Shown in pieces: positions 1-55,412 of a DNA stretch of 64,000 nucleotides. The stretch is from contig CAZTKG010000003.1 in assembly GCA_964613815.1 (NCBI GenBank), forward strand, positions 125,440 through 189,439, in the 5' to 3' direction. The stretch's first letter is position 1. Each line of letters starts with the position of its first letter. A program made the position numbers and the translations under genes. The DNA is from an uncultured Gammaproteobacteria bacterium (GTDB lineage Bacteria; Patescibacteriota; Patescibacteriia; UBA9934). The notes under the pieces are model-generated. The model was given only the letters and a program-made list of their open reading frames with translations, ran no database searches and was not told the origin of the DNA.

Positions 1-265
1 ACGTGACGGCGCCTTCGAGGTCGTCGTCGTAGTCGTCGGGGTTTCCGTCGCAGTCGTTGTCGATGCCGTCGCAGATCTCACTGGCGCCGGGGTTGATGGT
101 CGAGTCGGCGTCGTTGCAGTCCTGATCTGCGGTGTAACCATCTCCGTCTGAGTCGACATTGGCAGACGTTGTGGACGCCGTGACTGCGTCACAGGTGCCA
201 GAATCGTGCCAGTGGACGTCGGTGGGCGTGCAGGCGATGATCAAAAAGGGGATGAAGTGCTTCAT
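1..265 (-). CDS. putative metal-binding (MopE-like) lipoprotein, N-terminal part; the gene continues past the window start
   Basis: Reverse translation begins MKHFIPFLIIAC (lipobox), then DGDGY..DCNDADSTINPGASEICDGIDNDCDG Asp/Cys repeats. Local GC is well above the window average. Confidence 0.45.
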   Translation of the reverse strand, partial: MKHFIPFLIIACTPTDVHWHDSGTCDAVTASTTSANVDSDGDGYTADQDCNDADSTINPGASEICDGIDNDCDGNPDDYDDDLEGAVT

Positions 266-321
266 TGATTCCTCCGAAGCAGTGATGAAAGGATCTTGCC
301 AAAATAAAGGCTCAAGTAAAC

Positions 322-349
322 CTAGCGGAAAACAGGGTTCTTGTAAAGA
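322..349 (-). promoter_or_regulatory. degenerate copy of the conserved promoter block (TTTACA-N17-TAGGTT with TTTTCCGCTA core) upstream of the MopE-like gene
   Basis: The minus-strand read ctttacaagaaccctgttttccgctaggtt matches the block found at 5 other sites. Confidence 0.3.
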
Positions 350-756: not shown

Positions 757-1833
757 ATGAATATTGAAGCGGTTTTGGAGCAATATAGTGCTCGGAAAGA
801 AGAACTTGAGCGAGAGATGAACTCTCCTGACCTCGCAAAAGACAATAAACGACTTGAAAAGGTGCATCGTGCGTATCGCGATGTTGCGGAGATTTTTGGG
901 TTGGCGAGTGCACTGCGCGTGGCCGAGGGGGATTTGCGCAGTGCGAAAGAGATGCTTTCTGGGGATGATGAAGAGATGCGCGAACTTGCCCGTGAAGAGG
1001 TTCCGATGCTTGAAGCGAAGATCGCGGAGCTGACGCCACAACTTGAGCAGGCGCTTATTCCGAAGGATCCGATTGATGAGAGTGGCGCGATTTTTGAACT
1101 TCGTGCTGGTGCTGGCGGAGATGAGGCAGCCTTGTTTGCCGGGGATTTGTTTCGGATGTATTCACGCTATGCCGAGGAGAAAGGGTGGAAGGTTGAGATT
1201 GCGAGTCAGAGTCAGAATGATTTGGGCGGATGTAAGGAGATTATCTTTTCTATGAAGCATGCAGGGGCGTTTGGGGAGTTTCGGCATGAGAGCGGCGTTC
1301 ATCGGGTTCAGCGCGTTCCAGCGACAGAGAAGCAAGGGCGGATTCATACCTCTACTGCCACTGTTGCGGTTTTGCCGATTATTGAGGAGCAGGACTTTCA
1401 TATTGATGCCAAGGATTTGAAGATTGAGGCGACAACCTCTACCGGGGCCGGCGGACAGAGTGTGAATACGACGTATTCTGCGGTGCGGATTGTGCATATT
1501 CCGACAGGGGTGATGGTCTACTGTCAGGAAGAACGGTCTCAACGACAGAATAAGGAGCGTGCGCTTCAGATTATTCGGGCACGGGTGTATGCGGCTGAGC
1601 AGGAGAAAAAACAGGCGGAGCTGGATGCGACGCGGCGAAGTCAGATTGGGACTGGGGATCGGAGTGAGAAAATTCGGACGTATAACGAACCGCAGGATCG
1701 GGTGACGGATCATCGGATTAAGACGACGTGGCATAATCTTGCGGGGATTTTGAATGGAGATATCGGAGAGATCATTGCGAACGTTCGCCTTGCCATTCAT
1801 CAGGAAGCGCTTGCGGATGCGACGGAGGGGTAA
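757..1833 (+). CDS. prfA: peptide chain release factor 1
   Basis: GGQ motif ([10 protein letters not shown]) and PAT tripeptide of RF1. prmC lies immediately downstream. Confidence 0.95.
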
Positions 1834-3120: not shown

Positions 3121-4256
3121 TACTTCCCTCCCTCGTGGTAGATCTCGACTTGTGAGAGGTCTGACACGACTTCGATCCAAGTTGTGCCGGCGTTGAATTG
3201 GATTTCTTCGCCCTCTGTTTTGTAGAAGCGGATTCGGTCGGTTCGTTCTTCTTTTTTCCAGGTGACGAGTTCGGTTTCTCCGTCTTGGGAGAAGATTGCG
3301 TCTCCTGATCCTAGGGTTTCTAGTGACTTTCGGCCGATGCTGTCGATGATGCGGATGTCGGTCGCGATGACGGCGACGTTATTTGCGTAGATAGAGGCGC
3401 CGTTTTCCATGAGCATTTCGTCACCTGCCTGGAAGCGTTCGTAGCTATTTGTTGGTGCATCGTATGTCCAGCCGATTTCGTAGAGGTAGCTGCCGTTGAA
3501 GTCGATGGTGATGGATTCTGCGTCAGAGGCGATGACTGGTTGGTCGTCTTTGAAGCTCCATGACTCGTATGCTGGCTCGCCCTCGATTTCTTTGTCGACG
3601 AGTGCTGCGAGGAGCATGACCATTGAGGTGTAGACGTTATGTGGGGCGTAGCGCGTTTGGTTCTGGCGGTAGAAGTACGTACCGTTCCAGGTTTGGTCTA
3701 GGTCGATGGTGCCTGTGACGTTCTTGATGAGGTCTAGGGCCTCTGGTGAGCCTCCGACGTGTGCATAGACCGCGTCTAGGGCGTCGTTCCAGTCTAGATA
3801 GTATGGACGCGATGAGCGGATTGGACCTACTTTTTCTACATCACTCTCTTCTGAGTAGAACGCGATGAAGCGAGGGATACTTGCTTCTACCGGCGCCTCG
3901 ATGACGAGAAAGGCCTTGTCGAGTCCAGTGAGCGGCCATGCTCCGGCGGAATTTTCCACCATGATACCGAATACTCTTGGGAGGGACTCGAGTGGTGATT
4001 CGAGGAGGTCTCCTGTGAGCGGGTGCCGGTCTGGTTCGGTGACGGTCTCGGCCTGCTCGTCTTGATCTTCTGATACACGATCTACTGTGGACATGACGGC
4101 GAGGAGCATAAGAACGCCGACGGCAAGCAGGGCAGCGACGGCAATCCAGATCTCTCGGCTTTTAAATGTCTTTAGTGATTTTCCCATTTTAGCCCAAAAT
4201 GAGGGCTTTGGACCCTCAGGCTTGGAGCTTTGGGAGTTTTTGGACTCCTCTTGCAT
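3120..4256 (-). CDS. DUF3048-family membrane-anchored protein
   Basis: N-terminal TM helix and an MVENSAGAWPLTGL motif that matches the DUF3048 signature. Confidence 0.65.
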   Translation of the reverse strand: MQEESKNSQSSKPEGPKPSFWAKMGKSLKTFKSREIWIAVAALLAVGVLMLLAVMSTVDRVSEDQDEQAETVTEPDRHPLTGDLLESPLESLPRVFGIMVENSAGAWPLTGLDKAFLVIEAPVEASIPRFIAFYSEESDVEKVGPIRSSRPYYLDWNDALDAVYAHVGGSPEALDLIKNVTGTIDLDQTWNGTYFYRQNQTRYAPHNVYTSMVMLLAALVDKEIEGEPAYESWSFKDDQPVIASDAESITIDFNGSYLYEIGWTYDAPTNSYERFQAGDEMLMENGASIYANNVAVIATDIRIIDSIGRKSLETLGSGDAIFSQDGETELVTWKKEERTDRIRFYKTEGEEIQFNAGTTWIEVVSDLSQVEIYHEGGK

Positions 4257-4259
4257 AGA

Positions 4260-4940
4260 CTATTTGTCTGATGATTCTTCTTTTGATTCCCCGTCTTCTG
4301 ATTCCTCATCCTTCTTTTCGCTGGTCACTTCGACGTTTGATACGTCTCCATCTACCGCTTCGTCGAGCGCTTCCATTTCTTCTTCTGATCGTGGAGGCTG
4401 TACTGATGCGATTGCCTTTTCTGCGTCTGTGATGAGCTCGATGCCTTCTGGCATCTTGAGGTCACTCACGCGGAGGACGTCGTCGAATGTCTCGAGAGAC
4501 TCAACACTTACGGTGATTTCTTTCATGAGCGCCGATGGAAGTGCTACGACTTCAATTTCTTCAAGCGACTGGAGCAATGTTCCGCCGAGCGCCTTGACCG
4601 CAGGAGCCTCGCCTTCGAGCGTGATTGAGATAGAAGCCTCTACCTTCTTACTCATGTCTACGCGACGAAAGTCTGCGTGTGTGATGTCGTCAGAAATTGG
4701 ATGTCGTTGGATTTCTTGAATGAGGACATCGTGCGCTGACCCTTCAACGTCTAGCTTGATCACGGTACTTGTTCCCGCTTTTGACAAGAGACGCTCGAGG
4801 TTGTTTCGGTCCAGCTTTAGGCTTGTTGGTTCTGTTTCGAATCCATACATAACCGCAGGGACCTCTCCCTCTGCACGTAATTGGTTTGTTTTGCGTCCAC
4901 TGATTGTTCGTGTGGAGGCAGTAATTGTCATTTCACTCAT
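4260..4940 (-). CDS. rplY: 50S ribosomal protein L25 / general stress protein Ctc with acidic C-terminal tail
   Basis: RTISGRKTNQLRAEGEVPAVMYG L25 N-terminus. The start was moved by arithmetic to the internal start matching L25 and may be off by a codon. Confidence 0.75.
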   Translation of the reverse strand: MSEMTITASTRTISGRKTNQLRAEGEVPAVMYGFETEPTSLKLDRNNLERLLSKAGTSTVIKLDVEGSAHDVLIQEIQRHPISDDITHADFRRVDMSKKVEASISITLEGEAPAVKALGGTLLQSLEEIEVVALPSALMKEITVSVESLETFDDVLRVSDLKMPEGIELITDAEKAIASVQPPRSEEEMEALDEAVDGDVSNVEVTSEKKDEESEDGESKEESSDK

Positions 4941-4969
4941 AGCTTTTGTTATCGTAAATCGCCCGTATT

Positions 4970-5287
4970 TCACCGTAATTCGGGAAAATTGTCAAGCGAG
5001 CAGACCTCGTGCATTTCGATGACGTCGTCTACTGTGATCTTTTCGCCATGCAAGAAGCGTTTTGCGTCTTTTGCAGACCAGTCTGTGAGAAATCCAGCGC
5101 ATTCGATCCCTCCCCCTTTGTAGCGAATGTGCAGCATCATGGCATTTTTGCACTTTTGACATTTTGAGTGAACGTAGGAAGAACGCTCTTTTGATTCGAT
5201 CTGTGTCACATCTGCCGAAGCATACACCTCTTTGCAGTAGGGGCACTTTGTTATCGGACTCGTTGCTTCGGATTCTGATTTTTGCAT
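4970..5287 (-). CDS. hypothetical zinc-ribbon protein
   Basis: CPYCK...CQKCK cysteine pairs. No recognised family. Confidence 0.35.
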   Translation of the reverse strand: MQKSESEATSPITKCPYCKEVYASADVTQIESKERSSYVHSKCQKCKNAMMLHIRYKGGGIECAGFLTDWSAKDAKRFLHGEKITVDDVIEMHEVCSLDNFPELR

Positions 5288-19146: not shown

Positions 19147-19194
19147 CCATCTCGACCTTGGCGGAGAGATCTCTCCACTGCGGTCGAGATGGGA
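19147..19194. repeat. dispersed nested palindromic repeat, copy 1 (CCATCTCGACC-N5-GGAGAGATCTCTCC-N5-GGTCGAGATGG)
   Basis: Exact 11-bp outer arms and a 14-bp central palindrome, between convergent gatB and miaA. Confidence 0.8.
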
Positions 19195-21688: not shown

Positions 21689-21701
21689 ATGCGTCTTTGC
21701 C

Positions 21702-21750
21702 CCATCTCGAGCGAAGTCGAGAGATCTCTCCACTTCGGTCGAGATGGGAA
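21702..21750. repeat. dispersed nested palindromic repeat, copy 2
   Basis: CCATCTCGAGC...GAGAGATCTCTC...GGTCGAGATGG, 14 nt upstream of the thrS start. Confidence 0.8.
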
Positions 21751-21945: not shown

Positions 21946-22251
21946 TTGACGTGCAAGGGACTTGGTGATAGTCTTCGGGCGCAATGTGGAGGCCAAATGG
22001 CTTATGATAGCGGCGTCTCTCTGTGGAGAGGCTCTGGCGAGGAATACTGCATGAAGCACAAGATCTCGTTCCCGGGCATCAGCTGTCCTGACTGCCGATT
22101 CGAGATCAGGCGCAAGCTCGATCAGGAGCGCGCACTTGCCGAGAAGAAAGCGATTGTTGCCGCAGCTACTTCGGGGGCTACACGTCATCCGTTTGCGGTC
22201 GACGATCGTCAGCGTGAAGCCTGCAGCCCGGACGTTGACTCTCCTTCGTGA
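21946..22251 (+). CDS. hypothetical Cys-rich protein
   Basis: ORF with CPDC and CGG motifs. Weak support. Confidence 0.2.
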   Translation: MTCKGLGDSLRAQCGGQMAYDSGVSLWRGSGEEYCMKHKISFPGISCPDCRFEIRRKLDQERALAEKKAIVAAATSGATRHPFAVDDRQREACSPDVDSPS

Positions 22252-22344
22252 GAACCGCGTGATCGTGGTTCTTTTTTGTTTGAGAAAAAGATGACCGCGC
22301 CCGGGTTAGGGGCGCGGCTGAGAGTTGAGTCGTGTCACCACAGC

Positions 22345-23476
22345 CTAGGGCTTGGCGACGAACTCTCCGATGCGGAGGTTGAACCAGACACTGGGCCGCT
22401 TGGCATGGCTGTGCGTGATGGCGATGATGTTGCCACGGAGGTCCACGTCGGTGATGTTGCCGAGGTGGCCTCCGTACACGGCCTCGACCCACTCGTGCTC
22501 GTGGCGGTCGTAGTACATGATGCCGCCGCCGAACATGCCGCCACGGATCTCGTAGACCTCGACGTTTCTGGGGAGCTGGAGGCGCTGGCTCGGGTAGTAC
22601 TCGAGATCCTGCGTACGGGTGACGGTGCCGTTCTCGTAGGTGAGGATGTAGGACTCCCACTCGTCCTGCATGATGATGTTGGCTCCGTAGGGTGTCTGCG
22701 AGACGCCGACGACCGACCTCGCCGGGGTGGAAGCCGGGGCCGAGGGGGATGTTGGCGTCGACGGTGGCCAGAGTCTGGTAGGGCACGGTTCCGTCGGCGG
22801 CGGCCCAGCACCAGTGTCCGTCGATCTTGGCGAGGTACCGTTCTGGGGTGACATACTCGCCGTAGCCGGTGTAGATACGGAAGTACTGGCCGCCTTCGAT
22901 GTACTCAGTGGGCTCCCCACAGGGGACCTGGAAGCGGCCGGTGAAGAGGTTCAACAGGATCTCTTCGGGGTCGGTGTCGCGGGTCGCCAAGGCGTTCGGC
23001 GTGATGATGGTGCGACCGTGGTGCAAGTCGACCGCCTCGGCATGGCCGGTTCGGGGGCCCTTGTAGTACGCGATGTGCCAGTTGCCGCCCGCGTAGTACA
23101 GCATACCGTTGAAGCTGGCGGCGCCGGTGCTTGGGAGCATCGGGTAGATCGCCATGGTGTCGGTCTTGAGCAGGGGCTCCTGGACCATGCTGCCGGTCTC
23201 GCGGATGGTGACCAGCGCATCGCCTTCGGGGACGTACTGGTGCACGCCGCCTCCGGTGATGAGGAAGGTCTTTCCGTCCATGGTGACGAGGTCTTCGAAG
23301 CTGTCGTGGAGACTGAGGCTGACCGTGGTGCCGCCCGGGAGCTCGAGAGTCTCTTGGCGGACGCGACCGGGAAAGCTGACGTCGTGGATGAAGGTGCCGG
23401 CCGGCGTTTCGATGGTGTCGGCGCGGTCGAAGGGGGATGCGGCGAACGCGGTGGAAAGGGCGAGGGTCAACAGCAT
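22345..23476 (-). pseudogene. high-GC secreted protein gene split by a frameshift near 22700-22760
   Basis: The N-terminal part (signal peptide MLLTLALSTAFAAS...) reads in one frame down to about 22730. The C-terminal part (...TPYGANIIMQDEWESYILTYENGT...VAKP) continues in a second frame to the stop at 22345. The junction contains G/C homopolymer runs. Confidence 0.55.
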
Positions 23477-23530
23477 GAGATCTCCTTGGAGGGGTGGAAT
23501 GGATGCGATAAATCGCGACTGCTTGACGGT

Positions 23531-23563
23531 TTATATTAGCAGGAAAATGGGGTTTTGTCAATG
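23531..23563 (-). promoter_or_regulatory. conserved promoter block (TTGACAAAA-N-ATTTTCCTGCTAATAT) driving the frameshifted secreted-protein gene
   Basis: Minus-strand read cattgacaaaaccccattttcctgctaatataa: -35 TTGACA, 17-nt spacer, -10 TAATAT. Confidence 0.5.
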
Positions 23564-23632
23564 TAATCTTGGCTAAACCTTGACAAAATGCTAGTTTTAT
23601 GGCAAGTTCTCTAGTCTTAACAGGAGACTGAA

Positions 23633-23821
23633 ATGGACTCTCGCTCTTTAATCAATGGCTTTAGTACACCCGCTACCCGACAGTACTGTGCGTCCCACAA
23701 TCTGTTCTACCCGAAGAACGGTTCGTGCGTATTCTGCGATCCTCCGGTGCAACTTGATGATGAGCCTCCTCCGTCCGACCCTTCGCCGAAGAAGGATGTG
23801 GGAACGCAAACGCCGCGATGA
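23633..23821 (+). CDS. hypothetical small zinc-ribbon protein
   Basis: AGGAGA RBS 7 nt upstream, CxxH...CxxC motif, and the repeat element directly downstream. Confidence 0.35.
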   Translation: MDSRSLINGFSTPATRQYCASHNLFYPKNGSCVFCDPPVQLDDEPPPSDPSPKKDVGTQTPR

Positions 23822-23847
23822 ATTTCGCGGCGTGATTTTTTTTGTTT

Positions 23848-23893
23848 CCATCTCGACCTTGTGGAGGGATCTCTCCGCAAGGTCGAGATGGGA
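23848..23893. repeat. dispersed nested palindromic repeat, copy 3
   Basis: CCATCTCGACC-ttgtg-GAGGGATCTCTCC-gcaa-GGTCGAGATGG. Confidence 0.8.
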
Positions 23894-23915
23894 ATTGGAT
23901 GATGCACCAGGTTCG

Positions 23916-25162: not shown

Positions 25163-28100
25163 TTACCGCGAGAACATCACGTTCTGTTTCCCGACGATTT
25201 CTTGGATGCTTGCAATCACCTCCCCGTCTGGATCAATGAGATATTCTGTTTGGACTTTTCGGGAGCGCTCACCTGACCTTACGACGAGATAGACACGTTC
25301 TTTGCCGGGGTTTGCTTTTAGGAGCGCCTGCAGGTTTGTGATCATGTCTGGGGTTGGCTTTTGTGGGACGACGATGGAGACCCCCTGCATGACGAACGGA
25401 TTCATGATTTCGTTTTCACCGTCCTCTAATGACGGCCACATTCCTCGTTTTAGTGCTGACTTTACGATTGGCGTATCGGACTCTTCGAAACTCAGGAGTT
25501 GGTCGCACAGAATACTTCGACGACCTTCGTCGCCGTCTCGCACGGATACTTTTCCGGCGATGAGAGTAAGCTTTCCCTCGATGAGCTGATGCTGTATCTC
25601 TGCGAATATTTTCGGGAAGACAACGATCTCTAGCTCCCCTGCCCCGTCTTCTAGCTTCACAAAGGCCATGGGCTTTTGATGCTTCTTGGTCAGGATCTTT
25701 TTTACGGTACCGATGACACCAGCGACTTGGGTCATAGATTGGTTTTCCAGTCCTTGCACTGCCGATGTTTTGACAGTGAGATCTCCAAGAGTTTCTGAGA
25801 GGATTTTTCCTGGGTGGTTTGAGACGTAGATCCCGAGAAGCTCTTTTTCCCAAGCCATGAGTTCGCCTTTTGAGATCGGCTCTTTGACCTCTCTTAGGCG
25901 CAGCTTACTGTCTTGCATTGCTGGAGCCATGTCGAACATAGAGACTTGGTTCTGCTCCTTTTCTTTACTGATCTGCTTTGTGAAGAGAAGCATCTGGTCC
26001 AGGTTTGTGACCAAGCACTCTCTTTCTTCGAACCTATCTATTGCCCCTGACTTTGTAAGCGCCTCTAGGGCTTTTTTGTTTAGGGCGCTTGCTGGGACTC
26101 TGGATAGGAAATCTACTAAATCTACGAAATCTCCGTTTTCTTTTCGCTCCTGGACAAGCACTTTTGCAACTTCGTCTCCGTAGTTTTTGATGGCGCGAAG
26201 GCCCCAGCGGATGTTTCCTGTTTCTGGGACAACAGCGAAGCTTGGAAATGATTCGTTTACGTCTGGCGGGAGGACCTCGATACCAAGACGACGGCATTCT
26301 TCTACCTCGATCGTGATGCGGTCGATGTTTCCTGCGTCGGAGTTCATGAGGGCGGCCATGAAGGCGGATGGATAGTGCGCTTTGAGGTAGGCGGTCCAGT
26401 AGGCGATGGTTCCGTAGCAGGCGGCGTGGGATTTGTTGAATCCGTAGGCGGCAAAGTCTTCTAGTTTTTGGAAAATCTCTTCTGCGATGCGTTTTGGTAC
26501 GCCGTTTTCTACGGAGCCAGCAATAAACTTGACCTTCATTTTGGCCATCAGCTCGACGATCTTCTTTCCCATTGCTTTACGGAGCGTGTCCGCCTCTCCC
26601 CCGGTGAAGCCCGCCATTTCTTTGGAGATTTGCATCACCTGTTCTTGGTAGACGGGGATTCCGTAGGTTTCTTTGAACGAGTTTTCCATTTTTGGATGCT
26701 CGTATTCGATCTTTTCTTTGCCGTGCTTTCGCGCGATAAAGCTCTCGATGAACTGCATTGGGCCTGGGCGGTAGAGAGCCACCATCGCGATGATGTCTTC
26801 GAAGACGGTGGGTTTGAGTTCGCGGATGTAGCGCTTCATGCCGTCTGACTCGAGTTGGAAAACGCCAGTGGTGTCGCCGCGGCCGAGGAGTTCGAAGGTT
26901 TTTTTGTCTTCGAGGGGGATGTCTTCCACGACGACGGTGTCGCCGTAGACGGCTTTGATGACCTTGATCGCGTCTTGGATCACGGTGAGGTTTGAAAGGC
27001 CGAGGAAGTCCATTTTGACGAGTCCTGCGGCTTCTGCGGAGTTGAGAGAGTACTGGGTGACAAGGGCGGTGTCTTCTCTTTGGCCGGCTTGAAGCGGGGC
27101 GCGCTCGACGAGTGGCTTGTCTCCGACCACGAATCCGCAGGCGTGCTGCGAGGCGTGACGGGGGTTTCCCTCGATTTTCATGGCGAGGTCGATGACGCGG
27201 CGGGCCATGGCTTGGCCGTTGTAAAGCTGCTTGAGTTCTGGGTCTTCTTTGATGGCGATTCCGAGAGGCGTGTGGCGACCCTGTACGGGAGGTGGGACGG
27301 TTTTGGCGATAAGGTCTGCTTCGTCGTATTCGAGACCGAGGACGCGGGCAGCGTCGCGGACGGCGGCGCGGGGCATCATGGTTCCGAAGGTGATGATACC
27401 GGCGACGTGGTCGGCGCCGTATTTTTCCGTGACGTACCCGAGGACCTCCCCTCGCCTGGTGTCGGTGAAGTCTAGGTCGACGTCTGGCATGGAGATTCTG
27501 TCTGGGTTTAAGAAGCGCTCGAAAAGAAGGCCGTATTTGAGTGGGTCGATGTCGGTGATCTTTAGGGCGTAGGAGATGATGGAGCCTGCAGCAGATCCTC
27601 GGCCTGGGCCGACGAGGATTCCCTGGTCTTTTGCCCAGTTTACAAAGTCCTGGACGATAATAAAGTACGAGGCAAAGCCCATGTTTTTGATCACGCCGAA
27701 CTCGTATTCGAACCGTTCGAGTACTTCTTCTGAGAGATCGTTTCCGTAGCGTACTTTGAGCCCTGCTAGCGTGAGGTCGTGCAGGTAGTCGTCATCTGTC
27801 TTCCCTGGCGGCATCGGGAAGATCGGCAGGTAGTTGTTGCCTAAGTCCATTTCGAAGGTGACGGAGTCTGCCACCTTTTTTGTGTTCATGATGGCTTCTG
27901 GGATGTGCTTGTAGGCGTCGAAGATTTCTTGATTGCTGCACATGGAAAGATCCACATCCATTGGATTGGTTTGGCGGAAGCGTTCTAGCGTGCGGCCGCG
28001 TTGGATGCAGAGTTGGGCCTCGTATCCTTCTTTATCTTCTGACTTGATGTAGAACGAGTTGCGGGTGACGATGAGAGGAGCGCCGGTTTTTTTGCCGAAT

Positions 28101-28684
28101 TCGATGAGCTTTTCGTTGAGCTCAACTTGGCGGGCGTAGTCTGGGTGGTGAATGAGTTCTAGGTAGAAATTTTCCTCACCGACGATTTGTTGCCATTCAC
28201 GGAGGATAGACTCGGCCTTTTCGTGGTCGTCCATTGAGAGCGCTGAGGGGATTTGGCCTTTTGGTCCGCCTGATAAGACTGTAACGCCTTTGCCGTGGGA
28301 CTTCATGAACTCCATGTCGACGCGGGGCTTGTAGTAGAAGCCTTCGAGAAAGCCGGCGGTGGTGATTTTGAGAATGTTTTTGTAGCCGTCGTCGTTTCTT
28401 GCGAGGAGTGTTGCGCGGTGAGGGCGGCCGTCTAGACGTGAGCGTTTTAGGTGCATGCCGTGGACCGCGATGAAGGCGTCGAGGCCGATGATGGGCTTGA
28501 TCTCTGCCTTTTTGCAGGCTTTATAAAACTCCACGGCTCCATACATGGAGCCGTTGTCGGTAAGTGCGATTGCCTTCCCTCCTTGCTCGAGTGTGTGCGC
28601 GACAAGCTTCTTTGGGCTTGGTAGCGCTTCGAGGAGTGAGTAATGCGAATGCACATGAAGATTGACGAAATCTTCTGGCGTCAT
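25163..28684 (-). CDS. dnaE: DNA polymerase III subunit alpha
   Basis: PHP domain HVHSHYS at the N-terminus, then polymerase core, OB fold and other DnaE-wide similarity. The 90-aa N-terminal extension in the ORF track is a high-GC read-through and was removed. Confidence 0.95.
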   Translation of the reverse strand: MTPEDFVNLHVHSHYSLLEALPSPKKLVAHTLEQGGKAIALTDNGSMYGAVEFYKACKKAEIKPIIGLDAFIAVHGMHLKRSRLDGRPHRATLLARNDDGYKNILKITTAGFLEGFYYKPRVDMEFMKSHGKGVTVLSGGPKGQIPSALSMDDHEKAESILREWQQIVGEENFYLELIHHPDYARQVELNEKLIEFGKKTGAPLIVTRNSFYIKSEDKEGYEAQLCIQRGRTLERFRQTNPMDVDLSMCSNQEIFDAYKHIPEAIMNTKKVADSVTFEMDLGNNYLPIFPMPPGKTDDDYLHDLTLAGLKVRYGNDLSEEVLERFEYEFGVIKNMGFASYFIIVQDFVNWAKDQGILVGPGRGSAAGSIISYALKITDIDPLKYGLLFERFLNPDRISMPDVDLDFTDTRRGEVLGYVTEKYGADHVAGIITFGTMMPRAAVRDAARVLGLEYDEADLIAKTVPPPVQGRHTPLGIAIKEDPELKQLYNGQAMARRVIDLAMKIEGNPRHASQHACGFVVGDKPLVERAPLQAGQREDTALVTQYSLNSAEAAGLVKMDFLGLSNLTVIQDAIKVIKAVYGDTVVVEDIPLEDKKTFELLGRGDTTGVFQLESDGMKRYIRELKPTVFEDIIAMVALYRPGPMQFIESFIARKHGKEKIEYEHPKMENSFKETYGIPVYQEQVMQISKEMAGFTGGEADTLRKAMGKKIVELMAKMKVKFIAGSVENGVPKRIAEEIFQKLEDFAAYGFNKSHAACYGTIAYWTAYLKAHYPSAFMAALMNSDAGNIDRITIEVEECRRLGIEVLPPDVNESFPSFAVVPETGNIRWGLRAIKNYGDEVAKVLVQERKENGDFVDLVDFLSRVPASALNKKALEALTKSGAIDRFEERECLVTNLDQMLLFTKQISKEKEQNQVSMFDMAPAMQDSKLRLREVKEPISKGELMAWEKELLGIYVSNHPGKILSETLGDLTVKTSAVQGLENQSMTQVAGVIGTVKKILTKKHQKPMAFVKLEDGAGELEIVVFPKIFAEIQHQLIEGKLTLIAGKVSVRDGDEGRRSILCDQLLSFEESDTPIVKSALKRGMWPSLEDGENEIMNPFVMQGVSIVVPQKPTPDMITNLQALLKANPGKERVYLVVRSGERSRKVQTEYLIDPDGEVIASIQEIVGKQNVMFSR

Positions 28685-28726
28685 ATCACATTTTAGATTA
28701 GCAAAGATGTGGGAAAGAAAAAAGCC

Positions 28727-28762
28727 CCCGACGAGAGCTGGGCTCGATCGTCGGGGGGTGTG
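28727..28762 (-). terminator. rho-independent terminator after the 28782..29369 membrane gene
   Basis: Minus strand CCCCCGACGA-tcgagcccagctc-TCGTCGGGGG followed by CTTTTTT. Confidence 0.5.
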
Positions 28763-28781
28763 CCGTGGGCGGGCGCGTTGT

Positions 28782-29369
28782 CTAGGCCGGGTCGAACTCG
28801 ACCGGGGGGCAGACCTTGCCGTGGGCCGTGCGGAGGACGGCGATGAGGAAGGACTTGTTGAGCGCGATCTTGATGCGCTCGATGAGCCGCTCCGCTGGGC
28901 GCTCGATGAGCATGTAGGCAGCCATCGCCATGAACGTGAACGTGAACGCACCACCTACGGCCATGGCGAGGCTGATCATCACCTGCTGGAAGTGATCCAT
29001 CGCCTCGATGATCACCATCGGAATTGCGCCAAGCATCATGAGGAGGAGCTTGCCTACCCCGATGAGCGTGTACACGACCGCGTCGATGCCGGCGAGACCG
29101 GTGTGCTCGCTGACGATCTCGACCACTCCAACGAACGAGATCAGAGCGAAGACGCCGATGATCTGCAGCATGAAGGCTTCGGAGCCGGTGCCTCTCGAGT
29201 ACATGTCCTTGTAGAACAATGTCCAGCCGAAAGCCGAGAAATAGATCTCGTCGATGACGGCTCTGACGTACGGGCAGAGACCGATGTGTCCGGCGTCGAG
29301 GACCTCGACGTGGTAGGGGTTGGCGCGCAGGTAGAGTCTGCGATGCCAGGCGTTTTGTGGGAATCTCAT
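28782..29369 (-). CDS. hypothetical membrane protein, high-GC (paralog A)
   Basis: N-terminal WHRRLYL...LCPY and C-terminal VCPPVEF motifs shared with 30030..30608, and 4 TM helices. Confidence 0.55.
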   Translation of the reverse strand: MRFPQNAWHRRLYLRANPYHVEVLDAGHIGLCPYVRAVIDEIYFSAFGWTLFYKDMYSRGTGSEAFMLQIIGVFALISFVGVVEIVSEHTGLAGIDAVVYTLIGVGKLLLMMLGAIPMVIIEAMDHFQQVMISLAMAVGGAFTFTFMAMAAYMLIERPAERLIERIKIALNKSFLIAVLRTAHGKVCPPVEFDPA

Positions 29370-29396
29370 GTGATTTCACCTCTTGGTTGAAGGAAC

Positions 29397-29437
29397 TTTA
29401 GCGGTAAAATATACCAAATATTCTGCCTTTTGTCAAT
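29397..29437 (-). promoter_or_regulatory. conserved-family promoter (TTGACA-N17-TATATT followed by TTACCGCTA)
   Basis: Minus-strand read gaattgacaaaaggcagaatatttggtatattttaccgcta. Confidence 0.5.
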
Positions 29438-29487
29438 TCCCCCGGGTACTGAATAGAAAAAACCTCCCTTGTTGGGAGATTGAGGAC

Positions 29488-29919
29488 TTACGCGTCTGCA
29501 GCGGTGAAGAGTTCGGCGAATGCGGACATGGAGTCGTCCACCGTGTCCTGCAGGGAATTGCTGAGCTGACGCAGTGTGACGTGGAACGCGATCGCGAGGG
29601 CGATGGTCTGGCTGACGGAGTCGGTGCCGACCCTGCCCTGCAGCTCAGCGAGTACCGCCTTTGCCTCGGCGCTGAACGTCATGCCGAAGGCGTCGGTTCC
29701 GGCGTAGCTGTCCATGATGGCCCGTGCTTTACCCATCGCATCTTCCCCGAGGCTTCCGAGGCGTTCTACTTCGGCGCGCCTGTTGGGGTCTGTGAACACG
29801 TCCAGTGCGCGGAGGGATCTGCGAATGGCCTCGCCCGCGGTGCGCGAGTGGAGATCCGGTGTTGCCGCCCTGAGCATGGGCATGTTGATGTGGATGATGT
29901 TACCTGAGGATGATGACAT
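29488..29919 (-). CDS. hypothetical small alpha-helical protein (high-GC)
   Basis: Begins MSSSSGNII. The longer ORF-track start was rejected because it overlaps the real downstream paralog in another frame. Confidence 0.45.
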   Translation of the reverse strand: MSSSSGNIIHINMPMLRAATPDLHSRTAGEAIRRSLRALDVFTDPNRRAEVERLGSLGEDAMGKARAIMDSYAGTDAFGMTFSAEAKAVLAELQGRVGTDSVSQTIALAIAFHVTLRQLSNSLQDTVDDSMSAFAELFTAADA

Positions 29920-30029
29920 GTCTTCTCCTGAAAAAGGACGCTTTAGACTAGATTTTTTCGCTGGGTTTGTCAAGAAGTAAATGAAAAACCCCGGCGGGCC
30001 AAGCTGGGCTTGGGGCCGGGGCGGACGCG

Positions 30030-30608
30030 CTACTGCGCAGAGAAGCGGACGGGTGGGCAGACGCGGTTCCAGGTGGCGATGGCCATGGCTCCGAGGAGGG
30101 TGGAGGCGATGTAGGCCTTGGTGCGGATCAAGAACTTCCAGATGATGGAGCTCGTAATCGCTACAGCGACCCAGAATGCCAGCACGAATGGCACGCCGAT
30201 CGCAAACTTGCCCATCTGCAGGAGTTCGCCGGGAGCGTTGCGAATGAGATTCCCACCGATGTAGGACGTGAACTCCCAGATCACCGACACGAAGGCGATG
30301 AGCGTTCCCATGGCATCGGCGTGGATCATGGTGGCTATCTCGTGGAATGCGAGCACGAAGGCGATGGCACAGATCGAGACCACGAACCACCAGAGGCGGA
30401 TCAGGAAGGTGAACATGACGCTGTCGACGAATGAGAATCCGTCTTCGGTCTGCTTGCCGAAGTTGCGTCGCCAGATCTCGCCGACGACGGTCCAGAAGTA
30501 GGGACAGAGGTGAACCTCTTCGTTTTCGATACGCAGCCAGTCTCCTGGTTTGGCGTCGAGGTAGACCTGGCGATGCCAGACGTTTTTGTTGAACATGGAT
30601 GACTCCAT
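30030..30608 (-). CDS. hypothetical membrane protein, high-GC (paralog B)
   Basis: WHRQVYL...LCPYFW and RVCPPVRF motifs, paralogous to 28782..29369. Confidence 0.55.
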   Translation of the reverse strand: MESSMFNKNVWHRQVYLDAKPGDWLRIENEEVHLCPYFWTVVGEIWRRNFGKQTEDGFSFVDSVMFTFLIRLWWFVVSICAIAFVLAFHEIATMIHADAMGTLIAFVSVIWEFTSYIGGNLIRNAPGELLQMGKFAIGVPFVLAFWVAVAITSSIIWKFLIRTKAYIASTLLGAMAIATWNRVCPPVRFSAQ

Positions 30609-30627: not shown

Positions 30628-30659
30628 TACTATAGCGGAAAAATGTCGTTTTGTCAATA
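30628..30659 (-). promoter_or_regulatory. conserved promoter block (TTGACAAAACGACATTTTTCCGCTATAGT)
   Basis: -35 TTGACA, 17-nt spacer, -10 TATAGT, about 20 nt upstream of the paralog B start. Confidence 0.5.
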
Positions 30660-32443: not shown

Positions 32444-34837
<2,394 letters not shown>

Positions 34838-44748: not shown

Positions 44749-45951
44749 ATGTTTACTTCTCGATGGAAAATTGCTCTTGCCGTCCTTGGCCTCATTGCTT
44801 TTGCCATGCTTTTGGGGGGATTTTTTTATTGGCTCCTGTTTTCGAAGACGCCTGTTGTGACGCCCGTTGATGAGATCGTTGTTGATGATGGCACCGCGTC
44901 GCTTCCAGGCTCTGGAGATGCTCAAGAGCGGGTATCTACCCCTTCTGATAGCGCTCCTGCAGCGGAGAGTGATGGACTGCCCGTCAGTGACGCTGTTCTT
45001 TTGACCACCTCCCCTGTTGAGTCCCCTGTTGCAACCGGCCTTGGTGAAATGGCGTTTTATGACCCTAGCGATGGACGATTTTATCGCATTGATGAGAACG
45101 GTAATCTCGTTGCACTTTCCAGCGAAACCTTTCCAGATGTTGAGGACGTGACGTTTAGTACCGATGTTGACATGGCTGCCATCGAGTTTCCTGATGGAAC
45201 AAACATTTTGTATGACTTTGCGTCAGACGAGCAGACAACGCTTCCGAGTCACTGGGAGGACTTCACCTTCTCTCCTGAGAGTGAAATTGTTGCTAGCAAG
45301 AATATCACTTCCAATCCTGATCTGAATTCTATTGTTGTTACATCGACTGATGGGACGCATACGCAGGTTCTCGCAGGGCTTGGGACCAATGCGGGAGACG
45401 TTACACTTGACTGGTCGCCGACTGGAGATGTGATTGGGTATGCACAGACTGGAAGTACACAGAGTGGATTTGGGCGTGAGCAGATTTATTTGATTGGAAA
45501 CGATGGGGAGCCTGCGGGGTCCATTGTGGTTGAAGGTCTGTATTTTGATCCTATTTGGTCACCTAGTGGGGAGACGATTTTGTATTCTATTACGGATGAT
45601 TCTGCCGATGGTCGGCCGACGATTTGGTCGGTTGATGGGAATGGAGCGGACGCTGGGGGTGATCGGACTCGGTATGGGGTTCAGACGTATGTTGAAAAAT
45701 GTTCGTTTGCGACTGAGACGATTGTGTATTGCGCGGTTCCGCGAGAGCTTCCGGATAATGCTGGTTTTGATGTTAGCCTCGCTGATGCGCCGGATGATGT
45801 TTATAAGTTGAATTTGACGACTGGACAGACAACACTTGTCGCTGTTCCCTCTCGTGATTATCAGATGTTTAATGTCTCTGTTCCTGAGGATCAATCTATT
45901 CTTTACTTCACCGACGAGGCAGGTCGCCTTCATCGTTTAGAACTTGATTAG
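44749..45951 (+). CDS. membrane-anchored beta-propeller protein (TolB/PD40-like repeats)
   Basis: N-terminal TM helix and repeated DWSPTGD / WSPSGE PD40-like motifs. Confidence 0.5.
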   Translation: MFTSRWKIALAVLGLIAFAMLLGGFFYWLLFSKTPVVTPVDEIVVDDGTASLPGSGDAQERVSTPSDSAPAAESDGLPVSDAVLLTTSPVESPVATGLGEMAFYDPSDGRFYRIDENGNLVALSSETFPDVEDVTFSTDVDMAAIEFPDGTNILYDFASDEQTTLPSHWEDFTFSPESEIVASKNITSNPDLNSIVVTSTDGTHTQVLAGLGTNAGDVTLDWSPTGDVIGYAQTGSTQSGFGREQIYLIGNDGEPAGSIVVEGLYFDPIWSPSGETILYSITDDSADGRPTIWSVDGNGADAGGDRTRYGVQTYVEKCSFATETIVYCAVPRELPDNAGFDVSLADAPDDVYKLNLTTGQTTLVAVPSRDYQMFNVSVPEDQSILYFTDEAGRLHRLELD

Positions 45952-45953
45952 TT

Positions 45954-51352: not shown

Positions 51353-51400
51353 CTATCTCGACCGAAATGAGGAGATCTCTCCACGTTGGTCGAGATGGGA
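51353..51400. repeat. dispersed nested palindromic repeat, copy 5
   Basis: tATCTCGACC-gaaatga-GGAGATCTCTCC-acgtt-GGTCGAGATGG. Confidence 0.75.
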
Positions 51401-52228: not shown

Positions 52229-53074
52229 TCAAGTAAAGGACTTGGAACAAGTTAGCGCGTTTGCGAGGTAATAATGCCGAGACTCAAAGAGTCTCGGCAT
52301 GTTTTGTCTTGCCTCAAGCTCTCTCACGAGGTGCGGGAGCCAGTAGGCTCTCACCTGCTGGTACGTGCGACGTATGAAACGTTTAAGGACAGACCAAATA
52401 GCTTCAATGTGGTTTGTAGGGCCAAACTCAAATTTAGAGTGGATACAGACTTCATGCTTGTAGTTAAAGAACTCATGGATGCGGTTGTAACCGCTCCATC
52501 CGTCTGTGTAGACGGTGGAACCGGTCTTCACATGCTTAAGAAGAAATCTATCTGTCGTATCTTGCTCTCTGTTATCTGTGACAAAGAGGGCGACTCTCTT
52601 TGTCCCGCGTTCATACGCACCAATGACAATGCGCTGGTTACCGCTTCTCCTTCTTCCGACAAAAGCTTCGTCTACTTCTACATCCCCAGAAAGAATCTGG
52701 AGGTGTTCGTACGGAAGATGGTACTGGAACCTTCGGTACTATCTTCTGGCTGTCGGCACACTCACTCTTGCGAGTTCGCAAGCAGCGGGCAGAGCCCGCT
52801 GCTTCTGCCAGCAGTAGAGAAGGATCCAAAACTGTGTTCATGAGAGCTTCATTCCACTAAGCCATGAGACCGACGTGAGACTAAACGGCTTCCTGCAACT
52901 CGGACACCGGAATCTGCACTCACTTCTGCGAATATTAGATGAATTGCAGCGAGGACAGCGGATGCGCTGTCCAAACACTACTTTTCTGACAAAAGCCTTG
53001 ATCTTTCTTTCATTTGGAACCTCGTTTAGAATGGACATACGGAACAGTTGGTTATTTGTTAGCTGCACTAACAT
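52229..53074 (-). mobile_element. IS1595-family (ISXO2-like) transposase gene remnant with an internal deletion / frame break
   Basis: The N-terminal zinc ribbon (CPRCNSSN...CPSCRKPFSLTS) is in one frame. The DDE / C-terminal region (VEVDEAF...TDGWSGY...TNHIEAIWSVLKR) is in another, and only ~100 nt lie between them where ~300 are expected. Confidence 0.7.
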
Positions 53075-53181
53075 TGTAACCTCTGTTCCATTTCGATTAT
53101 ACGAGCCTGTTTATTTTGGATTGACAATCTGTGTAGTTCTGATATTGTTCGCTCCTGATCGATCTTTTTCTGGAGAAAATC

Positions 53182-53622: not shown

Positions 53623-53654
53623 CGTGCGCTGGCTGATGCTGGCGCTTTTTTGTT

Positions 53655-53696
53655 TGGGAAAAAGAAAGACCCCGCGCTTGGCAGGCGCGGGGCCTG
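53655..53696 (-). terminator. rho-independent terminator after the acidic lipoprotein gene
   Basis: Minus strand GGCCCCGCGCC-tgccaa-GCGCGGGGTC followed by TTTCTTTTT. Confidence 0.45.
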
Positions 53697-53733
53697 ACCG
53701 AAGGCGGAGTAGGAGACTCCCTCGATCTGATCT

Positions 53734-54427
53734 ACTGTTCCAGGTGGACGATTCGCGTGACGTCGGAGCTGTTGATCCCATTGTAGGCGATGCTCGGGTC
53801 GGCGTCGCTCTCGAATGCGGGATCCTCCAGGGCGTACAGCGAGGCCTGGATGCCCACCCTCTCCTCGGTTCCGTAGAACGCACAGGAGAGAACGAAGGAT
53901 GTCGCGCTGGCGACCTCGTGGTCGAAGAAGACGAGGTCGGCCTGGATGTCTGCCGCGATGTCGACCGGAACGATGTCGACGGAGGAGTCTCCCCCGCCCT
54001 GGATCTCGTAGAGCTCGCACCAGTGGAGGTACTCGTCCGCGTTGAAGTCGCTGTCGGACTCGACCTAGTAGACGATGCCACTTGCGGAGAATCCATCCTC
54101 CTCGGTCGTGATGGCGTCGGCGGTGAGTCGCGCTTCGTCACCAGCTCCGTAGGAGATGGTGTCCAGGACGGACTGCGGGGTCATGTAGGCTTCGACCGGG
54201 ATGACGTCGACGGGGATGACGTCTCCGGTCTCGATGATCTCCTCCATCGTGTCGCCGTCCGTGTCCTCGGAGCAGAGGTCCGGGAACTCGGCGCAGAAGT
54301 CGTCGGCAGGAGGGGTGAGGTCGGAGATCGTGGCCTCGTCTGCGGTATCGGTCTCGACGTCGGTTGGGGCGAAGCGGCAGGCGGTGAGGGTGAGGAAGGT
54401 GATGATTGCGGGGAAACGGGTGGTCAT
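53734..54427 (-). pseudogene. high-GC acidic lipoprotein gene interrupted by an in-frame TAG at 54065-54067
   Basis: Lipobox LTLTAC after a signal peptide. The reading frame continues unbroken after the amber codon (...SGIVY*VESDSDFNADEY...) to a stop at 53734. TAG is a normal stop elsewhere in the window (rpmE, gyrB). Confidence 0.55.
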
Positions 54428-54478
54428 TTGACGCTCCGTGAGGGTTTTTGAAGGAAACAGTCGTTTGACTGATGCGCG

Positions 54479-54510
54479 CATGATAGCAGAAAAATGCCTT
54501 TTTGTCAATC
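54479..54510 (-). promoter_or_regulatory. conserved promoter block (TTGACAAAAAGGCATTTTTCTGCTATCAT)
   Basis: -35 TTGACA, 17-nt spacer, -10 TATCAT, about 50 nt upstream of the lipoprotein start. Confidence 0.5.
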
Positions 54511-54570
54511 AAAATGTCTTTAAAAAGCTGTTTTTATTAGGTTTTTCTGGTTATTTTTGTTCAAAAGTAC

Positions 54571-54604
54571 TTGACAAAACTTGGTTTTTGTGCTATTGTA
54601 TAGC
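54571..54604 (+). promoter_or_regulatory. conserved promoter block, plus-strand copy (TTGACAAAACTTGGTTTTTGTGCTATTGT), divergent from the previous one
   Basis: Same block architecture, driving 54669..55061. Confidence 0.45.
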
Positions 54605-54668
54605 TATTCTTTCACACCATTCTATTCGCTTTTTAGCGAAGGAGTCCCTCAAGAATCCCTCCATTGGC

Positions 54669-55061
54669 ATGCGTATCATGCGCTACTTCGAGATCATGAT
54701 GATGCTGAGCGCTGTCACCGCAGCTCTCCTCGCCTTCGGTCCTGTGATCGAAGACGCTGAGAACACGCAGCGCGCACTGCATCAGCAGCGTGCGGAGCGG
54801 CGCGTGATCGATGAAGTCGCCATCAAGGCAGCTACCGAGTCAATCGCTACCTTCTCACGCTACTACAGCGCCTGCGAGTTCGAGGCCCTGCAGAACCAGC
54901 TGGTCGCTGTTAGCGGCGGTCGGCAGGTTACGCAACACAGCATCAAACTCATGCGGAATGCGGCACACAGTGCTCGTCTCGCTGGCGCACCTGCTAATAT
55001 CGTAGCCCTGCACCTCGACCGTGCCGGACAGCTTCACCGCTTCGCCTCCAGCCACCACTAA
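54669..55061 (+). CDS. hypothetical secreted protein (high-GC)
   Basis: Signal-peptide-like MRIMRYFEIMMMLSAVTAALLAFG. The start was moved to the internal Met. Confidence 0.4.
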   Translation: MRIMRYFEIMMMLSAVTAALLAFGPVIEDAENTQRALHQQRAERRVIDEVAIKAATESIATFSRYYSACEFEALQNQLVAVSGGRQVTQHSIKLMRNAAHSARLAGAPANIVALHLDRAGQLHRFASSHH

Positions 55062-55090
55062 CCACAAACATCAACGCATGGTACGCGAAG

Positions 55091-55396
55091 ATGCGTACCG
55101 GCGTCGTTCGAACCACTCTGCAGCGTCAGCTCCCCCACCTCACCAAGGAGTTCGAGATGGAGGTGCGCTCCGCCCTCCTTCCCGGACTCGCCGGTGATCA
55201 GAAGGCGGCGTTCTCCCGCGTTCGCCGGCTCGGCAACGACCCGGGTCGCCAGCTCGAGAACGCCAACGTTCTCGTCCGGATGGCGGCTCAGTCGGAAGAT
55301 GCCGACATGGAGCTGCTGACCGACATCGACACGCGTCGACGACGGCTCGTGCGTCTGGTTCGCCTGGCCGATGCCGGGCACCTGATCTGGCAGTAG
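55091..55396 (+). CDS. hypothetical protein (high-GC)
   Basis: ORF only. Confidence 0.25.
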   Translation: MRTGVVRTTLQRQLPHLTKEFEMEVRSALLPGLAGDQKAAFSRVRRLGNDPGRQLENANVLVRMAAQSEDADMELLTDIDTRRRRLVRLVRLADAGHLIWQ

Positions 55397-55412
55397 CCCT
55401 CGCCCTCGCCTC

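Follow-up and report, generated by a model that had tools for sequence, protein, structure and literature searches.

GC-rich islands of mostly envelope-type genes and their putative strong promoters in a genome placed among the Patescibacteria

Introduction

The stretch of DNA analyzed here, referred to throughout as the window, comprises 64,000 nucleotides of contig CAZTKG010000003.1 (assembly GCA_964613815.1, positions 125,440 to 189,439 of the forward strand). This 64-kb window has a GC content of 51.5% and contains compact housekeeping blocks (rpmE-prfA, gyrB, secE-nusG-rplK-rplA, gatB, thrS, dnaE, pheST, glmM, lemA-htpX-clpC and radA), between which lie four islands of higher GC content that hold the genes we call A to H (Table 1). 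A short AT-rich block precedes the island genes on their own strands. A first-pass annotation of the same DNA had taken this block for a promoter cassette shared by the islands, and had considered the islands themselves compatible with an acquisition of envelope genes from a high-GC donor. Our results point instead to a block that is probably the ordinary strong promoter of the lineage, and suggest that the islands are accessory envelope-gene units.

Comparison loci are numbered with the prefix L. The nearest relatives among them are Uhrbacteria, Magasanikbacteria and other Patescibacteria, with identities of 60% for ThrRS, 72% for NusG and 65% for DnaE, which places the organism, as far as protein identity can tell, in Patescibacteria (the candidate phyla radiation, CPR) and near to the first two groups. 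Marine metagenome assemblies of several samples hold the identical sequence (SUTE22-1 scaffolds, JGI Ga0104999 and others, and a Logan assembly). Although the jump in composition might suggest an assembly chimera or contamination, with foreign high-GC fragments joined into the contig, assemblies made independently, with different assemblers and from several samples, agree to 99.9-100% over the junctions, so that the islands are no assembly artefact. The intergenic region in which each junction falls is, moreover, compact and looks functional, having both promoter and terminator, and we give a chimera practically no chance of being the explanation.

Results

Island genes and their transcription units

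Sliding-window analysis bore out the GC rise that had been reported for at least four segments, with values of 0.62 at 1-250, 0.625 (peak 0.65) at 22051-23550, 0.58 at 28401-30500 and 0.59 at 53251-55500, against 0.515 for the window as a whole. Within the island open reading frames (ORFs), GC is approximately 0.60 at 28.7-30.6 kb and 0.61-0.63 at 53.65-55.45 kb. The last segment had originally been drawn as 53100-55450, which holds for most of its length but not for 53100-53650 (ORF I), where GC at third codon positions (GC3) is 0.56 and of native type.

Each island gene, or in one case the G-H pair, has its own promoter-like site, a Shine-Dalgarno sequence and a GC-rich hairpin followed by a T-run. 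Most of the products carry a signal peptide, a lipobox or membrane segments, as the first-pass annotation had it, the exceptions being E and H, which have neither signal peptide nor membrane segment. The lipobox, [LVI][ASTVI][GAS]C, can be read directly in the translations of A and F (Table 1) and of a second lipoprotein gene (1115 aa, GC3 0.82, lipobox ALTGC) that lies in the island of gene A, which extends approximately 5.4 kb past the window start. Protein A matches the MopE-related family PF11617 of Pfam at 45.3 bits (cut-off 27, E = 1e-11), and its full length also matches Laminin_G_3. Proteins B to H have no family in Pfam, NCBIfam or PHROGs, the sole databases checked for E to H, save for a weak match of C to a PHROGs membrane protein (E = 2e-4, no matched stretch passing alone).

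Two of the islands were said to carry disrupted genes, and both disruptions are confirmed. Gene B is inactivated by a 4-bp frameshift, an extra GGTC at 22711-22718, the removal of which restores a frame of 375 aa that aligns end to end with a 414-aa relative (junction GEVVGVSQTPYG in the repaired protein, GDVIGITETPEG in the relative). Gene F contains an in-frame amber codon at 54065-54067. An AlphaFold2 model of B, built on a 4-sequence alignment, had a mean predicted local distance difference test (pLDDT) score of 40.6 and offered no usable fold. The IS1595 remnant reported beside one island is likewise present, at island 4, where Pfam finds Zn_ribbon_IS1595 and DDE_Tnp_IS1595; tRNA genes lie about 1 kb from this island.

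Table 1. Predicted features of the islands and their surroundings (window coordinates unless another locus is named; aa, amino acids)
Feature	Position	Strand	Description
Gene A, 5' part	1..265	-	564-aa lipoprotein, lipobox LIIAC, MopE metal-binding repeats and Laminin_G_3; GC3 0.80
Promoter-like site of A	319..347	-	degenerate; TTTACA, 17-nt spacer, TAGGTT
Terminator of B	22294..22318	-	intrinsic, 9-bp GC-rich stem then T-run
Gene B	22345..23476	-	secreted, signal peptide, 375 aa reconstructed; GC 0.63-0.65, GC3 0.88-0.91
Promoter of B	23533..23561	-	TTGACA, spacer AAACCCCATTTTCCTGC, TAATAT; extended -10 element
Divergent promoter-like site for small Cys-rich ORF 23633-23821	23580..23608	+	TTGACAAAATGCTAGTTTTATGG-CAAGTT
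Terminator of C	28723..28739	-	intrinsic
Gene C	28782..29369	-	195-aa multi-pass membrane protein, GC3 0.86, divergent paralogue of D
Promoter of C	29408..29436	-	TTGACA, spacer AAAGGCAGAATATTTGG, TATATT
Gene E	29488..29919	-	143 aa, no signal peptide, GC3 0.78; terminator 29461-29481
Promoter of E	29945..29973	-	TTGACA, 17-nt spacer, TAGTCT
Gene D	30030..30608	-	192-aa membrane protein, likelier start 30596, GC3 0.82; terminator 29987-30003
Promoter of D	30629..30657	-	TTGACA, spacer AAACGACATTTTTCCGC, TATAGT
IS1595-family transposase remnant	52229..53074	-	fragmented; zinc-ribbon part 52838-53074, DDE C-terminal part 52229-52531
Gene F	53732..54427	-	acidic 231-aa lipoprotein, lipobox LTAC, GC3 0.87; terminator 53667-53695
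Promoter of F	54480..54508	-	TTGACA, spacer AAAAGGCATTTTTCTGC, TATCAT
Promoter of G-H unit	54571..54599	+	TTGACA, spacer AAACTTGGTTTTTGTGC, TATTGT
Gene G	54669..55061	+	130 aa, N-terminal membrane anchor, GC3 0.70
Gene H	55091..55396	+	101 aa, Arg-rich, no signal peptide, GC 0.66-0.68; terminator 55413-55438
Palindrome, full copies	21701-21748, 23845-23894, 51355-51399		repeat search
Palindrome, half copies	19164-19193, 34226-34255		repeat search
Miscalled ORF over B	L001 17070-17882 (window 22727-23539)	opposite to B	public gene call
Miscalled ORF over C	L001 11219-11902 (window about 28700-29380)	opposite to C	public gene call

Gene B is flanked by two small Cys-rich ORFs (21997-22251, plus strand, 84 aa; 23633-23821, plus strand, 62 aa) with CxxC-type motifs and native GC3, each with its own promoter-like site and terminator and neither with a family match.

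The island sequences show the strong GC3 periodicity of coding DNA. An Rfam scan returned three tRNAs and no other structured RNA in the window, and no RNA match downstream of the promoters in 18 related loci; together with the periodicity, these results rule out the islands as RNA genes. The Arg/Pro-rich spurious ORFs that had been noticed in their other frames are present, and public gene calls took such opposite-strand ORFs in place of B (270 aa) and C (227 aa), and the true proteins are as a result only partly represented in the databases.

Codon composition of the islands

GC3 is raised to 0.70-0.91 in nine island ORFs (0.78-0.91 in eight of them, 0.70 in G) while GC at second positions is ordinary, and the GC rise is thus an effect of codon position. 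Every native gene of the window has a GC3 of 0.36-0.65, with the genes for ribosomal proteins L31, L25, L11 and L1 at 0.36-0.56. The codon usage of the islands correlates at r = 0.96 with that of a high-GC genome and at r = 0.70 with that of the native genes, and lysine makes up 1.1% of the island proteins as against 6.4% of the native ones. Codon usage and Lys-to-Arg shifts of this kind, which are typical of high-GC genomes, argue for a recent import from a high-GC organism outside the phylum (Actinobacteria, Myxococcota or possibly a host), each ORF then having been put behind a native promoter. We consider such an import unlikely, as it would require at least eight ORFs each to have a breakpoint at the start codon and to gain a new promoter, and since the three GC-rich genes C, E and D follow one another with a separate AT-rich promoter for each.

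Other aspects of the composition are more readily explained if the island genes are long-resident and a locus-specific force, either GC-biased gene conversion at surface-protein genes that recombine readily and change quickly, or codon selection in the genes of highest expression, holds their high GC3 in place. GC-richness ends at the ORF boundaries or the terminator, promoters and leaders being of native composition, and the codon preferences of the islands exaggerate the native ranking (CTC far above CTG, GTC above GTG). C and D, moreover, are old paralogues, and both are GC3-rich. Against such maintenance in place, the amino-acid composition is shifted too, and the GC3 of the ribosomal-protein genes given above speaks against translational selection, which we rejected as a simple cause. 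To our knowledge there is no bacterial precedent for a GC3 excess of 0.3 through biased conversion or selection, and we judge this explanation improbable as well.

Strand skew offers a measure of how long the genes have been resident. At 4-fold degenerate sites, the coding-strand GC skew of eight minus-strand island ORFs is -0.37 to -0.69, compared with -0.57 for native minus-strand genes and -0.01 to -0.36 in two high-GC comparison genomes, so that these ORFs carry the skew of the host, in agreement with long residence. The plus-strand genes G and H, at -0.30 and -0.27 against +0.38 for native plus-strand genes, do not, and neither does the island of locus L027 carry the skew of its own host, which favors import. 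Taken together, the skew values give a mixed picture of residence time.

The native genes themselves display an extreme strand asymmetry at 4-fold sites whatever their orientation, the plus strand having G 0.36-0.44 and T approximately 0.33 against C 0.12-0.16 and A 0.10-0.15. GC skew in 500-nt steps is mostly positive and its cumulative sum rises steadily over all 64 kb, from which it appears that the window belongs to a single replichore and that the replication-linked mutational bias of the genome is unusually strong. Two further regions bear on the distribution of GC in the window. A cluster of native-GC secreted-protein genes at 44749-47911, in one of which an M23 peptidase domain is joined to a type IV secretion pilin (TrbC/VirB2-like), shows that the genome also has envelope genes without raised GC. 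Within dnaE, positions 26751-27550 form a GC bump (0.59-0.62, GC3 0.73) while the rest of the gene is ordinary; this is no island gene, and could be a recombination tract or a conserved domain.

The promoter block is of a general type

All six of the originally listed copies of the block exist and face their genes, and five of them are strong, the copy at 322-349 upstream of A being degenerate (TTTACA...TAGGTT). Further copies stand at the divergent site beside B, upstream of E (Table 1) and upstream of the next gene past the window start. TTGACA is matched at six of six positions, with a 17-bp spacer, at the sites of B, C, D, E, F and G-H. Beyond the hexamers, three features are conserved: the -35 element is followed by an A-tract, the distal spacer contains a T-tract, and TGC or CGC stands ahead of TAnnnT (extended -10), with TG one base before the -10 hexamer at B, C, F and G-H and CGC in its place at D and A. 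The block occurs more often in the window than expected, both as the pattern with up to three mismatches (six matches, 0.78 expected) and as exact TTGACAAAA (six matches, 0.56 expected; no shuffle reached six).

To call the copies nearly identical was too strong. They are 71-77% alike over 35 nt in a repeat search of the window, which found no likeness beyond that block, and when they are aligned from -50 to +110 the common part reaches only from -35 to -10, the upstream regions and leaders being unrelated. Close variants of the block also serve native genes in the window, at the secE-nusG promoter (TTGTCA-AAAACGCTTATTTGTTA-TACATT) and at the rpmE promoter. A genome-wide pattern scan, which gave at least 119 loci with one match each and in which the window's own genome was not among the matches listed, found the exact degenerate block in at least 119 genomes of Patescibacteria, Clostridia and other phyla. 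In other genomes it stands before genes of housekeeping function, namely those for a DEAD-box helicase, for ClpC and for an ABC transporter, and before the infC-rplT operon, an outcome that the first-pass annotation had itself set down as refuting its proposal. The block also occurs in 52 viral contigs, and these occurrences reflect the generic promoter only.

To obtain a profile free of ascertainment, we took 22 other TTGACA-N17-TAnnnT sites from Patescibacteria loci. In these, spacer positions 1-3 are A in 68/64/50%, positions 10-13 are T in 41-59%, and positions 15-17 are T in 59%, G in 59% and C in 50%. The profile thereby reproduces the block, which is best described, on this sequence comparison, as the ordinary strong sigma-70 promoter of the lineage and the standard one of the phylum: TTGACA, A-tract, T-rich spacer, TGn and TAnnnT. 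The positions beyond the hexamers had been taken as signs of a regulatory module or a common mode of acquisition, and they lose that meaning, being found in the general profile too.

A specific module, in the form of a shared operator or an alternative sigma factor for an envelope regulon, or else a mobile promoter element, would account well for one observation: all six exact TTGACAAAA sites stand in four intergenic regions flanking GC-rich ORFs, with a rough hypergeometric probability of approximately 3e-4. This local concentration, however, can be put down to each island unit needing a promoter of its own, whereas native genes lie in long operons with less perfect promoters. The block lacks dyad symmetry and conserved flanks, its 5-nt spacer core is variable, and its conserved positions are those of the general profile, found before unrelated housekeeping genes in many genomes and phyla. 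The idea of a module is thus largely refuted, and we hold it to be very improbable.

In several loci of GC 0.59-0.65 (L006, L042/L115, L058, L061 and L100) the same block stands before housekeeping genes, in L058 before infC-rplT. Of these, only L100 bears the label Patescibacteria. The remaining loci go under 'uncultured Gammaproteobacteria' or 'uncultured bacterium', a labelling that looks doubtful. High-GC lineages with this promoter type therefore exist and could be donors.

Relatives of the island proteins

Reconstructed B found no match in a word-indexed search of 5.8 billion proteins, and D found itself only. An exhaustive HMMER search of 1.8 billion representatives returned four remote relatives of the N-terminal 246 aa of B; the three that were looked up are Lys-rich proteins on short contigs of GC 0.38-0.53, and two of these three stand behind the same promoter type (TTGACAAAAGCTCAACGCTATGCTATAAT and TTGACAAAAAGCCAAATGTGTGCTATAAT). 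C, which was outside both of these searches, has no Pfam or NCBIfam family and no viral contig. Relatives of neither B nor C were found on viral contigs, and a phage origin of the islands was set aside on this ground. For A, there are thousands of MopE-repeat matches at 33-45% identity. Its combination of MopE repeats and a LamG domain recurs in genome bins assigned to Myxococcota and on a contig of 68% GC, and isolated GC-rich MopE lipoprotein genes occur elsewhere in Patescibacteria (L186, with GC3 0.77 among neighbors of 0.32-0.49, and L028, L029 and L085).

These results bear unevenly on import from outside the phylum. The two-domain architecture of A, together with the IS remnant beside island 4, speaks for it. 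Against it, A finds nothing closer outside the phylum than repeat-driven matches at 33-45% identity, and large protein searches returned no high-GC relatives of B or D. The expectation of an actinobacterial donor fared no better, as the protein searches gave no actinobacterial signal, A being of a Myxococcota-like type and B having only remote relatives.

Variable slots between conserved blocks

The islands occupy slots between conserved housekeeping blocks, from thrS to dnaE, from dnaE to pheT and next to rpmE. In L174 and L175, whose DnaE is 65% identical, the housekeeping order is kept and unrelated ORFs sit in the same slots. In the slot just upstream of dnaE, L175 (GC approximately 0.43) has a different signal-peptide ORF of GC 0.62-0.65 (1150-1800, minus strand) with a promoter in the style of the window's (TTGACAAGACCTTTTTTTATGCTATTAT) and a hairpin terminator, and this ORF appears to be frameshifted like B.

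A near-perfect palindrome of 48 nt, CCCATCTCGA..GAGAGATCTCTC..TCGAGATGGG, recurs in the window and resembles a repetitive extragenic palindromic (REP) element or a miniature inverted-repeat transposable element (MITE). Two full copies bracket the variable block from thrS to a 389-aa gene (small ORF, B, small ORF; island 2), and the third marks the left edge of the variable block that contains the IS1595 remnant and island 4. The palindrome sites may be a recombination or insertion hot spot. An integron or mobile cassette was considered and rejected: there is no integrase in the neighboring ORFs and no attC-like site among the repeats, the units share no ends, and their 3' ends are plain hairpins with T-runs.

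Recurrence across Patescibacteria

In loci fetched via the promoter pattern, any segment of 450 bp or more whose GC exceeded the locus median by 0.10 or more was counted as a GC island, and the Patescibacteria sample consisted of 38 named loci, ascertained by the promoter. Islands number 9.2 per 100 kb in the named Patescibacteria loci, 6.4 in ambiguously labelled loci and 3.6 in other phyla, and of the 35 islands in Patescibacteria loci 19 have a consensus promoter directed into them, compared with 1 of 13 elsewhere. The ORFs behind these promoters have a GC3 of 0.67-0.90, against 0.31-0.65 for native genes, and encode signal-peptide, lipoprotein or membrane products. GC-rich ORFs recur wedged between rplK and rplA or gyrB and nusG, or beside glmM.

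Across 12 genomes (native GC3 0.31-0.65), calculated from our own ORF calls and threshold-selected islands, island GC3 scales with that of the host (r = 0.81, p = 0.0014, slope 0.57), with an excess of +0.33 (standard deviation 0.06). A single fixed high-GC donor pool, which we favored while island GC looked constant at 0.60-0.67, was dropped in view of this scaling. The same relationship argues against import from outside the phylum, since there is no fixed donor value, and for maintenance in place, with the reservation that a correlation with host GC3 is also expected from partial drift to host composition and was obtained from these same calls and GC-threshold islands.

L029 and L085 form a pair in which both members have a two-gene GC-rich island at the same position, and the proteins encoded on either side of it share 57-83% identity. 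Nucleotide identity is 77% for promoter and leader, and protein identity within the island only 27% and about 42%. Despite this divergence, at which native genes are saturated with change, GC3 is 0.84 and 0.75 in the first gene and 0.84 and 0.82 in the second (0.75-0.84 overall, at one conserved locus), which supports maintenance in place and is difficult to reconcile with recent import. Either GC-richness has been maintained through saturating divergence, or alleles have been swapped within the phylum via the conserved flanks. The conservation of promoter and leader together with a GC-rich gene also bears on the suggestion that a host-type promoter was fitted after acquisition, an order of events that cannot be shown.

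The leader of approximately 250 nt between the promoter and the GC-rich secreted-protein gene of this pair (L029 5463-5750, L085 3187-2890) contains blocks conserved between the two, among them TTGGGAAGTnTTCCTCCTCTTCTCA and AGTACATTGACTT; Rfam gave no match for this leader, which may be a cis-regulatory RNA. In the Uhrbacteria contig L004 (57% GC), two GC-rich ORFs of GC3 0.84-0.90 have a diversity-generating retroelement between them (reverse transcriptase and bAvd, 3856-5222).

Discussion

The reading that we prefer, with a probability of roughly 0.55, is that the islands are accessory envelope-gene units with their own promoters, sitting in variable slots and exchanged mainly within the phylum. 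Each unit is self-contained, comprising a predicted near-consensus sigma-70 promoter, a short Shine-Dalgarno leader, one or two GC3-rich ORFs and an intrinsic terminator. The products would mostly belong to the cell envelope, with A, its 1115-aa neighbor and F as predicted lipoproteins, B as a secreted protein and C, D and G as membrane proteins. Recombination, chiefly inside the phylum, is the most likely means by which such genes are acquired, exchanged for others and lost, and their evolution is probably rapid, presumably owing to exposure to hosts or phages. They would also appear to decay easily, as the frameshift of B and the amber codon of F show. Exchange within the phylum is supported by the relatives of B behind the same promoter type and by the MopE matches of A to GC-rich ORFs of Patescibacteria.

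Several points weigh against exchange of accessory units as the explanation. No donor was identified for any island gene, A having a best match of 45% identity and B and D no close one. The relatives found are all distant and include no close strain without an island, so that gain and loss in this lineage are a matter of inference. No integrase domain was seen among the neighboring ORFs scanned, and the repeat search gave neither an attachment site nor a target-site duplication. Expression and envelope location are both predictions. The restriction of high GC to the ORF and its terminator is awkward for a simple import of foreign DNA, and GC-rich genes at the same position in genomes as deeply diverged as L029 and L085 fit vertical persistence as well as they fit exchange.

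These last two points lead to the possibility that the islands belong to a distinct class of Patescibacteria genes, fast-evolving envelope genes with strong promoters whose GC3 is held approximately 0.3 above background in place, by biased conversion at recombination hot spots or by some unusual selection, and persists over deep divergence, so that the islands of the window would be members of this class rather than foreign DNA. We regard this as rather doubtful. Of the original proposal of horizontal acquisition from a high-GC donor, the distinct accessory genes, the variable slots and the IS remnant still make some horizontal origin plausible; an actinobacterial donor is the part that found no support.

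For accessory envelope-gene units and for their promoters alike, there are practical consequences. The motif can be annotated as a lineage consensus promoter and should be useful for the prediction of transcription units in these uncultured bacteria, and the GC-rich ORFs, on which automatic gene callers err, are to be annotated as accessory envelope genes. Patescibacteria are thought to live attached to other cells, and host contact or phage evasion are the leading candidate functions for the lineage-specific lipoproteins, secreted proteins and membrane proteins whose genes have the strongest promoters. Islands and intra-phylum transfer are already known in Patescibacteria, and high GC3 maintained in place is the sole part that would surprise. 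If it holds true, it would represent a rare case of strong within-genome GC heterogeneity that is not driven by transfer, and would open a way into the study of recombination or selection in organisms that resist cultivation.

Comparison with known systems

The block closely resembles extended -10 sigma-70 promoters, reportedly described for Gram-positive bacteria by Voskuil and Chambliss in 1998 as the TGn or '-16 TRTG' type. It shares with them TTGACA, a 17-bp spacer that is AT-rich, TAnnnT and a TG or TGTG just before the -10 hexamer, and the same block is found in Clostridia and Patescibacteria. It differs in that two of the window copies have CGC rather than TGC, and the sites of the window are predicted from sequence.

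With the MopE-related lipoproteins (PF11617) with Laminin_G_3 that are abundant in Myxococcota, A shares both the motif (at the E-value given above) and the two-domain architecture. Identity, however, is only 33-45%, A lies in a Patescibacteria genome behind a promoter of Patescibacteria type, and similar GC-rich MopE genes exist in other Patescibacteria.

Integron cassettes are likewise short accessory units of a single ORF, arranged in tandem and in one orientation, as C, E and D are. Integron cassettes, however, usually lack a promoter, and in the window every unit comes with one of its own and with an ordinary intrinsic terminator.

Both genomic islands and horizontal transfer are frequent among Patescibacteria, with 83% of inferred transfers taking place within the phylum (PMC12455944), and a 30-kb region of 63-68% GC has been reported in a CPR genome of 51% GC (bioRxiv 10.1101/2020.04.08.032540). 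The islands of the window resemble these published cases (PMC12455944; bioRxiv 10.1101/2020.04.08.032540) as atypical segments in small genomes, with mostly intra-phylum transfer and a nearly equal GC contrast. The published islands, however, are multi-gene elements, while the units of the window are 0.5-5 kb long, hold one or two genes and no mobility genes, and are scattered among housekeeping genes.

Finally, the islands recall the hypervariable surface-protein loci known as 'metagenomic islands', in that envelope proteins occupy variable slots, pseudogenes occur and, as in L029/L085, promoter and flanks are conserved around highly divergent ORFs. Such loci are usually of average or low GC, whereas genes of the type found in the window stand approximately 0.33 in GC3 above their own genomes.

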